NCBI GenBank assembly: GCA_005223125.1
Contig: NJBH01000044.1
Span: 1-25,026, forward strand
DNA length: 25,026 bases
Direction of reading: 5' to 3'
Source: Promethearchaeota archaeon Loki_b32
Lineage (GTDB): Archaea; Asgardarchaeota; Lokiarchaeia; Sigyniarchaeales; SOKP01
Shown: piece by piece, positions 1,669 to 24,867 of the stretch
How positions within the stretch are numbered: the stretch's first letter is position 1
Layout of the letters: every line of letters begins with the position of its first letter
The notes under the pieces: generated by a model
What the model was told of the DNA's origin: nothing
The model's input: the letters and a program-made list of their open reading frames with translations, nothing else
Database searches by the model: none
Program-made: the position numbers and the translations under genes

Positions 1669-1750
1669 TCGATTTTTCGGGATTAATCCCTTTTAGGTGT
1701 TAACAAAATTTTTTTTCTTTTACTTATTTCGTAAAAATTTAGACTGATAT

Positions 1751-1765
1751 TATTTAAACTTTTGT
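1751..1765 (-). promoter_or_regulatory. Putative archaeal BRE-TATA promoter for the Fe-S/larA unit
   Basis: Minus strand reads ACAAAAG-TTTAAATA. Confidence 0.45.
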
Positions 1766-1825
1766 ATCTATTATTTTTTTATCTCATAACCTATCAATCT
1801 TTGTGTAGCATGGTGTCTCTGCTCA

Positions 1826-1841
1826 GTGCGACATGAAGCTG
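1826..1841 (+). mobile_element. First 16 nt of an outer group II intron, serving as target (IBS2+IBS1) of the inner intron
   Basis: GTGCGACATGAAGCTG fits the group IIB 5' consensus GUGCGAC..GAAG and is immediately followed by a second GTGCGACATGA. Confidence 0.65.
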
Positions 1842-2375
1842 GTGCGACATGATGTTATACAATTGAATACGGGACCTTGAGTATTACTGAATGGTATGCT
1901 TATCAATGGATAAGCCCTCAAGAAACCGACATCGAGTTGGACGAGTGTGGAAGCCCATGGGTGCGCCACTGGTAACGGTGGGGTACTAAGCGTTGGGAAA
2001 TGTACCGACAGAGGAGAATGCACTCCTGCTGCGGGCTAATAAAAGACCTCTATGGTAATTGAATGAACTCATGATAAACCTCGTAATGTCGCAGAAGCGG
2101 AATGCATTGATACGCCTTGCCAAAATGGCAATATTGCTAGTAGACATTGGTCGGCTTTCAATGTCTTTCCAATCATAGAGCAGTCGGGGGAAAGTGAATA
2201 CCTAAGGAGGTTGTTGAAAGTCAATTGTACGAAACATGGTAAGCCCTATGGATTCCATGAAGTATTTCATGGTAACCTGACCGTAAGGGAGGGGGATGAT
2301 TCAGAGGGTAAAGGATGCTGGAAAAAGCGAATGCCACGCTGTAATGGTATGGATAGGGGCTATTATGATGAAAAC
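1842..2375 (+). mobile_element. Group IIB intron, 5' portion only (domains I-III); no DV/DVI or RT ORF seen; 3' limit approximate
   Basis: GTGCG start. DI closing stems 1852-1856/2233-2237 and 1858-1866/2221-2229. GUAA-capped hairpin CCACTG-GTAA-CGGTGG. EBS1 hairpin 2142-2166. AACATGGTAAGCCC DI/DII junction. DII with CC-GTAA-GG. J2/3 AAAGGA. DIII-type GCTGGAAAAAGCGAATGCC..CTGTAATGG..GGATAGGGG. GC visibly higher than the flanks. Confidence 0.88.
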
Positions 2376-2399
2376 TCTAGTAGAGGATACCCAATCTGA

Positions 2400-2660
2400 A
2401 AGAATGCTGGCTTTCTATGCAGGTATAGACGAGAAAAAGGCTTTCTCAAAATTCATTACCATTGTATTGTCGTGGGTGCAGCAATAGATAGCACGACAAA
2501 CAGAAAAAGAAAAAGTAGGCGATAATGGTGCCATTGACCCAATCCGATGAACTAGAAGAGAAGAGAGTCTTAAACTCGCCCGTTAATGCTCTCTCCAAAA
2601 TGCTAAGGGAGAATAATTGAGAAGACGGGATTCTTGAGAGACCCAATATTCTTTTCAAGG
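2400..2660 (+). pseudogene. Possible heavily degraded IS5-family DDE transposase fragment
   Basis: Across frameshifts and stops it reads RREKGFLKIH / ITIV...QQ*IARQTEKEKVGDN / KRVL, resembling 'kGwlKlHiavD...qIla...TdekvgD'. Weak similarity only. Confidence 0.3.
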
Positions 2661-2871
2661 ATGAACGTTCATTATTGAAATTATATATCTCTTGAAGTTG
2701 ATAAGAATTGATCCATATTTTGTATAAAAGAAAGCCCAATATCCATCAAACTCAGCTTACAGACTTTATAAGTTAAGGTTATAATTTTTACTTTTATTAA
2801 AAATAATTATCTTGATAATTCGTCAGTGAGATTTCCCAATTCTAGATTTTATAATTTGTAGGATACAATAA

Positions 2872-5235
2872 TTAGCCCATCAACACTTTAACATCATATT
2901 TTTTGCCATCTTTGAATACCGGTAAGAGATTATTTTCCTGTATTATATTATCTACTTTAACTAGTTTTATTCCTTTAGATCGATGCTCTGGATTTTGAAC
3001 TTGAATATCATAAATTGCATTCCTGAAGTATCGAGTGACTCTGAATTTATCCCATTTTTTTGGAATACATGGGTTTATCTTTAAACCATGAAAATCTGAT
3101 CGTATTCCAAGAATCCAATCTGTTGCAGCTTTCATTGTCCATGATGCTGTTCCTGTAAGCCATGAATTTTTCGCAGCTCCGAATTTTGGATGATCATTAC
3201 CTGTAATCATTTGAGAATAGATATAGGGTTCAGTTTGATGTATTTCTGCAATTTTATTTTTACTAGTTGGTGCAATTTTTTTAAAATATTCATATGCAAT
3301 ATCACCTCGTCCTAAAATACATTCAGCAATTTCTGCCCAAGGATTAGAATGACAAAAAATTGAAGCATTTTCTTTAAGACCAGGGGGGAAGGTGCTTATT
3401 CCTTTCAATTTTGGGTAAAATCGTGTATAGGGAGGGTATAATAATTTAATTCCAAATTTAGTTACTAGGTATTTCCTAACAGAATCCATACATTGAAAAC
3501 TCCTGTCTACTGGGGCAACTTTACTAAAGACAGCCCATGATTGAGTATTTAGGAAAATTTTCCCTTCTTCATTACTTTTACTCCCTATTACTTCTCCATC
3601 ATCAGTATAGGCACGAATATACCATTGACCATCCCACGCGTATTTATTAATATGATCTTTTATTTTTTTAGCTAAATTATTGTATTTCTCAACATCAGCC
3701 TTAAAATTTAATTCATTTGCGATATTACTTATATCAGATAATGCTTTATGGAACTGCATGGCAACCATGACACTTTCACCATTTTGATTTGGTCCATGTA
3801 GCTGAAGCGTATCATTCCAATCGGCAGTACCTATCAATGGGAATCCATGTGGGCCTATATGATTAATTGTGAATTCTATTGCTCTCTTAAGATGATCATA
3901 TAAACTATCTTTAGAACCTTCTACATAATCCACCTCATGTTTCAAAATTGACCAGTCTCCTGTTTCTTTTAAATAATTACTAACAGCATATATCATCCAT
4001 AAATGATCATCACTAAAGAATTTCATACGTGGATTAACATAATCTGGATAATCACCCTTACCTGTTAGAGGGAAATAAATATGATATACCTTTCCATCTT
4101 CAAATTGGATTTTAGCTAATTCTAATAAACGCTTACGAACTAATTTTGGAAGAGAATGACAAACTGCGAGTGTATCTTGATTACTATCACGAAAACCTAT
4201 CCCTCTACCTATACCTGTTTCATAAAAAGAAACATAACGAGCCCAATCAAAAGTAGTTTTACATTGATACGGATTCCAAATATTTATGATGGAATTGAAA
4301 TCTTCATCTGGAGTTTCTACAATATTTTTTTTAAGATAATTATCCCAAGTCTCTTTTAATTTTAAAAACTCTATTTCAACATTATCAAATTTCTTATATT
4401 TATGAATCAATTGCTTTGCTTGGGATTTTTCTTTTACAATTCCTAATATAAATACAATTCTTTTTGTTTCATGAGGATTTAATGTCATCGAGTTGTAAGT
4501 AGCAGCAATAGGATTTCCCCCAAGAGCTTGAGAATTTTTGCATTTACCATTTTCTACACTTACGGGGTTTTCTTCAGAACGATAGAGACCAATAAAGGAT
4601 TCTCGATCACAATCATAACCTATAACTTTACCATTCGATGCAAAAAAGGCTATGTATGAGGATAAATCAAAAAGATGATAGAATATCGCATTTACTATGT
4701 GATCATATTTTGCAACAGCAACATTTTGAATATATTGGAGATCCCTTTGATCTGCTATAGCACTCCAAAGACAAAATTCAGCATATGAAAATATACCTAA
4801 TTCTTTTTTTCCTGAAGAATTATTTTGTAGAGTTAAAGACCAAATCTCCAAATTGTCTTCCAGTGGTACAAAATAAAGAATTTTAGCCTTAACTCCTTTA
4901 TATGATGAACTTATTTTAGTGTAACCTAAACCATGTCGACATTCATAATTATCAAGTTTTTTAATTACAGGTTGCCAAGTAGGAGTCCAGTATTCTGAAG
5001 TCTGATTATCTCTAATATAAATATATCTCCCTGGTCTGTCTATAGGTAAATTATTATATCTATATCGAAGAATTCTTTGATCTCGTGGATCTATATAAAA
5101 ACTATATCCTCCCCCAGTATTAGAAACCATAGCACAATACTTTCCATTACTTAAATAATTAATCCATGGAAGAGGAGTATCTGGTCGTGTAATTACATAC
5201 TCTTTGTTCTTATTATCAAAATATCCGTATTGCAT
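2872..5235 (-). CDS. GH94 glycoside phosphorylase (cellobiose/chitobiose/cellodextrin phosphorylase-like; substrate uncertain)
   Basis: MQYGYFD..EYVITRPDTPLPWINYL, GRGIGFRDSNQD, catalytic ADWND, PPGLKENASIFCHSNPW, SWLTGTASW. Confidence 0.93.
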   Translation of the reverse strand: MQYGYFDNKNKEYVITRPDTPLPWINYLSNGKYCAMVSNTGGGYSFYIDPRDQRILRYRYNNLPIDRPGRYIYIRDNQTSEYWTPTWQPVIKKLDNYECRHGLGYTKISSSYKGVKAKILYFVPLEDNLEIWSLTLQNNSSGKKELGIFSYAEFCLWSAIADQRDLQYIQNVAVAKYDHIVNAIFYHLFDLSSYIAFFASNGKVIGYDCDRESFIGLYRSEENPVSVENGKCKNSQALGGNPIAATYNSMTLNPHETKRIVFILGIVKEKSQAKQLIHKYKKFDNVEIEFLKLKETWDNYLKKNIVETPDEDFNSIINIWNPYQCKTTFDWARYVSFYETGIGRGIGFRDSNQDTLAVCHSLPKLVRKRLLELAKIQFEDGKVYHIYFPLTGKGDYPDYVNPRMKFFSDDHLWMIYAVSNYLKETGDWSILKHEVDYVEGSKDSLYDHLKRAIEFTINHIGPHGFPLIGTADWNDTLQLHGPNQNGESVMVAMQFHKALSDISNIANELNFKADVEKYNNLAKKIKDHINKYAWDGQWYIRAYTDDGEVIGSKSNEEGKIFLNTQSWAVFSKVAPVDRSFQCMDSVRKYLVTKFGIKLLYPPYTRFYPKLKGISTFPPGLKENASIFCHSNPWAEIAECILGRGDIAYEYFKKIAPTSKNKIAEIHQTEPYIYSQMITGNDHPKFGAAKNSWLTGTASWTMKAATDWILGIRSDFHGLKINPCIPKKWDKFRVTRYFRNAIYDIQVQNPEHRSKGIKLVKVDNIIQENNLLPVFKDGKKYDVKVLMG

Positions 5236-23469: not shown

Positions 23470-24867
23470 ATGGAATATGGAATAACACCGGATGATGCCT
23501 CAAAAATAATTTTAGAATCCTATAAAGATATTACGATGGTTTTAAAGGCTGCTGGATCTTCGAAACGTCTTGTTATATTGGCATATCTCTTGAAAGGATC
23601 TAAAAGTTTTTCTTTTATGTTGGATCGCCTAAAAATCAAGCGTACTACGATAAATCATCATCTCGATCTACTTATAAGATCAAAATTAATTGAAAAAGAA
23701 GAATGGGGAAGATATCAAATAACTGAAGCTGGTATCGAGTTTATTGTAAGTATAATTAAAGCATATAAACTTATTAGTGATAATACTCAAAATGAACAAG
23801 AAAAAATGTTGAATAAATGGCCAGAATGGCCAGATTTTTTAAAAGAACCTAGAATAATTAACGAGAATAAGGTTAGTAATCCAGCTTTGTACGAAGGGGG
23901 TTGGAATTCCTATATATCAACAATCACGGGAGTTCTAAATTTTTTGGGAGATCAACACGATTATGTTTACATAAGCGGTATTACTGGTTATTGCTTTCTT
24001 GTAAGCATACCTGGAATAGTTAGAACATTCCTGATTAAGGAAAACAATCCAGCTGATGTATGGCAAGAAATCAATGGAGGTACTGAATCATTTGGCTGGC
24101 AATTAAAAAAATGGGAACAAAGGAGAAATAGCCCAGGGAAATGGAATTTAATAGGGGAAGATGTTGAATTAGCATTAAAAGTATTCAATCAAGTTAAAGA
24201 AATTATAGATAATGATACGCCAGTGATATTATATGGTATCCGCGGTGCAGGTTTCGGGATAATTAATGGTTATAGAAATGATAGTTATCTTGTAAGCAGT
24301 TATTATCGAAAAGAAGGGCGGAATGAAGTCCCCGTTCGATTTGATCAACTTAGAATACTTGATAAGTTTATATATTACTATTTCGGAAAAAAAAAGGAAA
24401 AAGAAGAAACAGAAGTTATAGAAAAAAAAGCTTTGGTTCGAGCTTTAAAATTTGCTAAAGGAACAACATATTCCAATGGAGGATACTATGTTGGTCCTCA
24501 AGCATATGATTTCTGGATATATATGCTAGAAAAAGGAAAAGAAGAAAATATAGATAAATTTGGAAATAGCGTTTTGGGAATTTATTATTTTGATGCAAAA
24601 GATGTAACATTTGAGTATTTAGATCGGTTAGCTCGCAAATATAAAAACACCCCACAGGGAGTCAATTTAAAGGAAGCAAGTAAAAATTATAGAGATGCTA
24701 AAATGCATTTAGAAAAGTTTACTGTCCTCTTTCCATACTTCGAACCAGAAAATAGCAGTCTTACACTGGATAAAAGGAAGAAAGGTGCAGAAATTCTTAA
24801 AAATGTCAAGATAAGTGAAATAGAAGCAATCAACAATTTAGAAAAATCGATAGAAAAATGGGCATAA
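23470..24867 (+). CDS. ArsR-like winged-helix transcriptional regulator with a large C-terminal domain (BtrH/papain-like fold suspected)
   Basis: LKAAGSSKRLVILAYL...KRTTINHHLDLLIRSKLIEK..GRYQIT..G wHTH. The C-terminal part has GITGYCF, PVIL, FGIINGY and G..AYDFW patterns. Confidence 0.8.
   Translation: MEYGITPDDASKIILESYKDITMVLKAAGSSKRLVILAYLLKGSKSFSFMLDRLKIKRTTINHHLDLLIRSKLIEKEEWGRYQITEAGIEFIVSIIKAYKLISDNTQNEQEKMLNKWPEWPDFLKEPRIINENKVSNPALYEGGWNSYISTITGVLNFLGDQHDYVYISGITGYCFLVSIPGIVRTFLIKENNPADVWQEINGGTESFGWQLKKWEQRRNSPGKWNLIGEDVELALKVFNQVKEIIDNDTPVILYGIRGAGFGIINGYRNDSYLVSSYYRKEGRNEVPVRFDQLRILDKFIYYYFGKKKEKEETEVIEKKALVRALKFAKGTTYSNGGYYVGPQAYDFWIYMLEKGKEENIDKFGNSVLGIYYFDAKDVTFEYLDRLARKYKNTPQGVNLKEASKNYRDAKMHLEKFTVLFPYFEPENSSLTLDKRKKGAEILKNVKISEIEAINNLEKSIEKWA

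Follow-up and report, generated by a model that had tools for sequence, protein, structure and literature searches.

Homing of group II introns into other introns and mobile elements is established in Methanosarcina, Thermosynechococcus and Trichodesmium. In Thermosynechococcus elongatus, the ORF-less introns of the TeI3 (F3) family home into TeI4 (PMC2882425), and for the Tr.e.I7/I8 pair of Trichodesmium sequential splicing has been demonstrated in vivo (Pfreundt & Hess 2015, PMC4649490). Large insertions are also on record for the IIB1 introns of the groEL clade, in which subdomain Ia is described as 300-700 nt inserted at the base of domain I (Michel et al. 2007, as summarised in PMC12584367).

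The window analysed here comprises 25,026 nt of contig NJBH01000044.1 of Promethearchaeota archaeon Loki_b32. A first-pass annotation, made from the letters alone, had placed in it a group II intron of an Asgard-like archaeon, with guide sequences directed at the 5' end of another group II intron. The host is indeed an Asgard archaeon, and the proposed target is borne out by a second insertion (L031), free targets, an empty site and the fit of EBS3. The inner intron, referred to here as B, has another intron's sequence, matched by its guides, as its 5' exon, as in a twintron. It carries a real and well-supported specificity for homing behind the first 16 nt of an intron (+16 homing), preserved in a dead fragment.

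B lies on the forward strand, flanked by two minus-strand genes, one larA-like (87-1403) and the other GH94 (2872-5235), so no host gene is interrupted. The copy is dead, lacking the catalytic domain V and the branch-point domain VI: homology to ORF-less relatives, which extends beyond the range 1842-2375 first proposed as a search query, ends at 2667, about 150 nt short of the intron 3' end. The break after this position is spanned by a contig from a public run covering 2419-2802. B is present as a single copy in its own assembly (G000; 4.1 Mb, 95.5% complete, in which repeats may be unassembled), and neither a domain V nor a reverse transcriptase (RT) was found there. In full-length relatives, domains V and VI are found with scores of 52-58 bits. 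The Rfam model D1-D4-7, of the kind proposed earlier as a check on the fold, matches B below threshold and its relatives above it.

B is a group II intron by its GUGYG 5' end (at 1842) and by a domain I-III fold with covarying stems; it is of IIB type by the pairing of EBS1 and EBS2 with the 5' exon and by EBS3 in the coordination loop. Self-splicing and retrohoming by a full-length copy are putative. The RT of a sister intron has the domains RVT_N, RVT_1 and GIIM and 6ME0 as its nearest solved structure (E 2e-73); by these features B, whose surviving domain IV holds no ORF, would belong to the CL lineage. An ORF-less domain IV of about 450 nt is kept across subtypes (2360-2667 in the window; L003, L042, L048-L050). 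That of the window is 89-95% identical to domain IV of the C-type intron in L042, domain I only 73-81%, which suggests either recombination or constraint.

Domain I closes on the second of the two starts, as had been noted for 1852-1866 with 2221-2237, but the register 1852-1856/2233-2237 is replaced by a better one, in which 1848-1851 pair with 2235-2238 (compensatory pairs CATG/CATG, CAAG/CTTG and CGTG/CACG) and 1855-1866 with 2221-2232. Minimum free energy folds of the whole region did not recover the full intron structure. A minus-strand ORF at 2446-2739 is of low complexity. Downstream, 2872-23134 is a sugar-utilisation locus with two GH94 phosphorylases, a GH3 enzyme, aldo-keto reductases and an Opp-type binding protein, and a weak Rfam match to SraG at 23812-23921 (minus strand; E 0.55, far under the gathering score) is most likely due to chance.

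Table 1. Features of the locus, with window coordinates, and target sites of related introns, with the loci in which they are occupied.
Feature	Position or locus	Strand	Evidence or remark
Left end/leader of IS-like element, 5' exon of the outer intron	1679-1825	+	Repeated in many genomes of the class
Start of the outer group II intron (16 nt), serving B as 5' exon (homing site)	1826-1841	+	Missing from the empty site
IBS2 (exon -15 to -9; outer intron positions 2-8, most of GUGYG)	1827-1833	+	Covariation register
IBS1 (outer intron positions 11-16)	1836-1841	+	6/6 with EBS1, one G-U
Inner intron B (domains I, II, III and most of ORF-less IV; truncated, V/VI gone)	1842-2667	+	Homology to the complete ORF-less inner intron of L003 and to L042
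5' strands of stems I(i) and I(ii)	1848-1866	+	Partners 2235-2238 and 2221-2232; comparative table, duplex energies
EBS2, 7 nt	2087-2093	+	Watson-Crick in 14-21 of 21 relatives at each position
Homing site (2119/2120) of related C introns in domain I of B	2104-2120	+	13/15 match to guides of the L003 inner intron
d3 hairpin with EBS1 (CGGCTT) at 2152-2157	2142-2166	+	95% of EBS1-IBS1 cells paired; two-sided changes at all 6 pairs
EBS3 (A)	2192	+	Base follows that of the 3' exon in full-length relatives
Intron target: domain I after EBS2 stem	L003, L042		
Intron targets: two more domain I sites	L091, L094		
Intron targets: domain I/II junction and RT PQG motif	L049		
Intron target: base of domain IV	L002/L051		
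Intron target: YADD	L015		
Intron targets: two domain V sites	L021, L105		
Intron target: domain V-VI junction	L052		
Non-intron target: ISH3/IS4-like element	L004/L088/L101/L115, L005/L053, L031		Three sites within ~45 nt, three specificities
Non-intron target: transposase gene	L114		
Non-intron target: other coding gene	L102		

The motifs on which the first-pass annotation was built (starts at 1826 and 1842, the hairpin at 2142-2166 with CGGCTT at 2152-2157, the octamer at 2086-2093, and the hexamers ATGTTA and TGCTCA) are all present at their positions. The positions of EBS1 and EBS2 are backed by covariation in 14-25 relatives, confirming EBS1 where it had been placed. The guide-equivalent sequences differ widely among these relatives, each still matching its own 5' flank. 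When 25 introns were compared with their own exons, a mean of 11.6 of 14 positions paired, against 6.4 for permuted flanks (maximum 8.6 in 20,000); in a 14-row alignment, 91.6% of the cells were paired, against 57.6% after shuffling (0/500) and 33-53% when the guide register was slid along. EBS2 had been read as eight pairs over ATGTCGCA at 2086-2093. The covarying part is 2087-2093, pairing with 1833-1827, and the eighth pair is incidental, since the conserved A2086 finds a partner in only 4 of 14 relatives.

The resulting EBS2 is a continuous 7-bp duplex from -9 to -15 and the EBS2a-equivalent position shows no covariation, differing from the 5-bp EBS2 and separate EBS2a pairing with exon -14 by which IIB1/IIB2 introns are recognised (PMC8643678). 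Exon -14 and EBS2 position 2092 form a Watson-Crick pair in every one of 21 introns. In IIB1/IIB2 introns, -14 is where IBS2a lies; in the B family it is read in register, with no separate EBS2a. The EBS3 residue, A2192, predicts that the lost 3' exon began with T (outer intron position +17), the base seen in matching intron starts. A 14/14 match, with G-U allowed, has a probability of about 2.4e-7 per fixed site at the composition of B's own genome.

That the 16 nt in front of B are inserted DNA follows from an empty site in a genome of the same genus (L074 in G103). The orthologous locus is 94-96% identical to the window up to exactly 1825, where the match stops; past this point the G103 sequence runs on into the leader of a multi-copy IS-like element. 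Intact copies of this element encode a 436-aa DDE-type ORF that resembles a DDE transposase (Atlas 0.95), its match to ISH6 being weak. The inserted 1826-1841 are identical to the start of a free, RT-encoding intron (L100), including the T that comes next, and differ by one base from the start of the L003 inner intron. Sixteen nucleotides are too short to identify the outer intron; its IS flank argues for a further subtype. Neither the bases before 1826 (TGCTCA) nor the outer flank of L031 fits the guides of B, indicating that the outer introns were of other specificities. A Logan contig, which may derive from the source sample, spans 1650-1866 with two differences and makes an assembly error an unlikely origin of the double start.

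The two starts, 16 nt apart, are identical at 13 of 16 positions. Such a period and identity would be expected if the intron's own 5' end had been duplicated locally in tandem and had later diverged, but a duplication leaves unexplained why EBS1 matches 6/6 in the first unit and no more than 4/6 in the second. The IS flank is unmatched by the guides of B, so B could not have homed there itself, and the B copy in L042 has no duplicate. Above all, metagenome contig SDBT01156448.1 (L031) contains the first ~80 nt of B, with two differences, behind a different outer start (GTGTGACATGAAGTCG) that ends in AAGTCG and is identical to the start of another intron, at a genomic/IS site that differs from the window's. 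L031 ends before the EBS loops, so its guides are deduced from 5' identity; judged by sequence, it is a second, independent +16 insertion. Because an independent event excludes a local duplication, that explanation is largely refuted by L031 and retains hardly any probability.

Clear +16 insertions number two. Searches for further double starts gave none in genome contigs, only chance matches in 400 genomes of the phylum, and a chance match or nothing in viral contigs; three of four metagenome matches were unrelated tandem repeats, and a contig covering 1828-1959 was too weak to count as a third insertion, with only 14 nt on the outer side. Full-length copies of B with a 3' flank resuming the outer intron, which the first-pass annotation had suggested looking for, were not found, this part being deleted both in the window copy and in L031. 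A search for a domain VI end followed by intron position +17 returned one-mismatch matches only, no more than the control. The sequencing runs listed as holding the region include no RNA data. Among the relatives, L002/L051, L003, L091, L094 and L105 form complete twintrons, in which the 3' flank resumes the outer intron. Uninterrupted introns starting with the target, likewise suggested, do exist: 15/15 matches to the guides of B are present at the starts of L100, the inner and outer introns of L003, the inner intron of L002, and L114. In 161 genomes of the class, the 17-nt target pattern has three exact matches, each of them an intron start.

The recommended homolog search, which found B once in its own genome, located homologs in 25 of the 161 class genomes. 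Among relatives whose domain I is 75-86% identical, the targets comprise other sites in introns, IS elements, a coding gene and further DNA (Table 1), including an A-rich TATA-like motif; by our tally, in which sampling was not random, roughly 11 of 27 distinct target sites lie in introns and 5 in IS elements. Homing to +16, first attributed to the lineage, thus holds for B and not for its relatives at large. Grouping the intron-targeting members as one clade was rejected, as the label needs three changes on the domain I tree (midpoint root, long branches).

Given this diversity, the true target of B might be some other sequence, a host gene or an IS, that resembles intron starts, and the +16 insertions would then be incidental. 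Close relatives do target transposase genes and other non-intron DNA (L114, 86% identical to B in domain I, sits at L114:108 in a transposase-like frame, with a putative catalytic Asp motif a few codons further on), and two clear insertions are few. Both, however, are at intron +16 with all three guides matched, while two chance 14/14 sites elsewhere in G000 are unoccupied. Homologous copies at unrelated non-intron sites, named beforehand as counter-evidence, were seen for relatives and none was found for B, and we regard this reading as improbable. The address itself is narrower than first described: intron 5' ends are near-invariant at positions 2-9 only, positions 11-16 vary, and 3 of 28 sampled intron starts are full 15/15 targets, many others reaching 13-14/15. 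B addresses a subset of its close kin, not group II introns at large.

Two further features of the relatives may be recorded. A clade with U-rich guides (support 98/95; L008, L009, L010, L012-L014, L016, L019, L027 and the outer introns of L002, L091, L092 and L094) sits ~8-10 nt downstream of TATA-box-like motifs in intergenic DNA and is possibly a lineage specialised on archaeal promoters. Non-canonical intron 5' ends (TCGTG, TTGCG) occur in L018/L050, L030/L048 and L042:389; in L018/L050 and L030/L048, the EBS1 register puts the splice site at the T.

The start of B itself matches its EBS2 in full and its EBS1 at 4 of 6 positions (5 of 6 in L042), its own hexamer being ATGTTA. All three B copies have an A at +16. 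In the window this residue, A1857, faces C2230 unpaired where the sister intron has a G-C pair, which weakens stem I(ii) to -8.5 kcal/mol, against -12.8 to -14.9 kcal/mol (isolated duplex); most other introns with A16 have a compensating T. The idea that B avoids self-insertion is upheld as far as the mismatch of its own start to EBS1 goes. As a selected trait, the +16 change is suggestive; the case for adaptation was not retained, for the IS-targeting L088 has the same A-C apposition and L007 shares the hexamer of B.

These data also bear on whether B inserted into an older copy of itself, in a self-homing event like that of the lycophyte cox1i1149 intron. The perfect fit of EBS2 to B's own start speaks for this, as does the target hexamer in the inner intron of the sister L002, which the ancestor of B probably had too. 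The A at +16 in all three B copies speaks against it, and so do the outer introns, lying in two IS sites that the guides of B do not match and hence of different specificities; self-homing is very improbable.

Domain I of B is in turn a target for related C introns. In L042, whose B copy has the same EBS2 and is 96% identical over 277 nt, a C intron occupies the site equivalent to 2119/2120, and a C intron is inserted there in the outer intron of L003 too. C-type intron starts are 14-15/15 targets for B. Insertion of C into B is observed directly in L042, and insertion of B into C is not among the observed cases. The B copy of L042, on a contig of 1.5 kb that may be misbinned, begins with TTGCG directly behind the 3' end of another intron, without the 16-nt exon, which would fit a tandem insertion at the junction by an intron with EBS3 = A (mechanism in PMC12584367). 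It is conceivable, if rather doubtful, that Asgard CL introns form a web of mutual parasites, in which B inserts into the 5' ends of C and C into domain I of B, each renewing the other's sites; B would have escaped its own guides through the stem-weakening change at +16, and decayed +16 insertions would have become the "subdomain Ia" insertions of other IIB introns.

For the locus as a whole, it is highly probable that B homed by its guides to nucleotides 16/17 of an outer intron residing in an IS-like element, followed by a later deletion. We infer the retrohoming route, the order of events, mobilisation in trans and immunity to self-insertion as follows. The IS-like element next to the larA-like gene would have been invaded by the outer group II intron, which would itself then have received B at the junction of its nucleotides 16 and 17, by ordinary EBS/IBS-guided retrohoming, the guides reading intron positions 2-8 (EBS2), 11-16 (EBS1) and 17 (EBS3). 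EBS1 pairs 6/6 with AAGCTG and AAGTCG alike, the G-U pair moving; by such wobble, its two Gs would allow B to home into the starts of its closest relatives wherever these had landed, while B's own start, mismatched at +16, would be spared. The RT was most likely supplied in trans, because the surviving domain IV matches ORF-less relatives. A later deletion would have removed the last ~150 nt of B, the remainder of the outer intron and the transposase; what is gone from the window comprises domains V and VI of B, the transposase and all of the outer intron except 1826-1841. The earlier deduction that the outer intron could splice only after excision of the inner one is moot for this dead copy and cannot be assumed in general, since the groEL clade tolerates insertions of 300-700 nt a few nucleotides away (PMC12584367).

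Compared with known systems, the B family resembles TeI3 in general behaviour: TeI3 belongs to the CL-lineage IIB introns, as the B family probably does, and in both EBS changes diversify families and some members have as their target a conserved position within an IS or another intron; ORF-less members are moved in trans in TeI3 and probably so in the B family (PMC2882425). The best solved relative of the family's RT, 6ME0, is itself the structure of an intron from T. elongatus (PMC8643678). The insertion point of TeI3 is in domain IV of the outer intron, where the ORF starts; that of B lies within the ribozyme, 16 nt from its start, and the GUGYG splice-site consensus is read as IBS2. The nests of Methanosarcina acetivorans (Dai & Zimmerly 2003), as summarised in PMC4424553, are likewise archaeal and intergenic, arose by repeated site-specific homing into group II introns, and share with B the "perpetual homing site" and erosion by deletion. 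Going by the title of the original paper, their targets are intron ORFs, whereas the B family also uses the RNA 5' end, domain I sites, the domain I/II junction, the base of domain IV, domain V and RT motifs. In the Trichodesmium Tr.e.I7/I8 twintron the inner intron also lies in domain I of its host, but this is a single locus, ~150 nt into the host intron and within a real gene, neither 5'-terminal nor at several independent loci (PMC4649490). Subdomain Ia of the groEL clade, set apart here by its description in PMC12584367, lies in an internal loop (around positions 11-13) and is not described there as an intron, whereas the site of B is 3 bp into stem I(ii); more speculatively, decayed +16 insertions might be the source of the domain I insertions of that clade.

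Our literature search, which was incomplete, found no reports of introns that take the first 16 nt of another intron as homing site; with respect to the systems above, what is new is a target at the 5' terminus, a host among the Asgard archaea and, possibly, a pair of introns that target each other. B homes by the 5' splice-site region, the sequence best conserved in its own class, and this address moves along with related introns. If the roughly ten other targets that this Asgard family has inside introns are added, twintron homing extends from ORFs to nearly all ribozyme domains, in the archaeal group closest to eukaryotes. B may also be a natural example of how a single guide nucleotide separates self from non-self, and it suggests where large insertions at the base of domain I could have come from.
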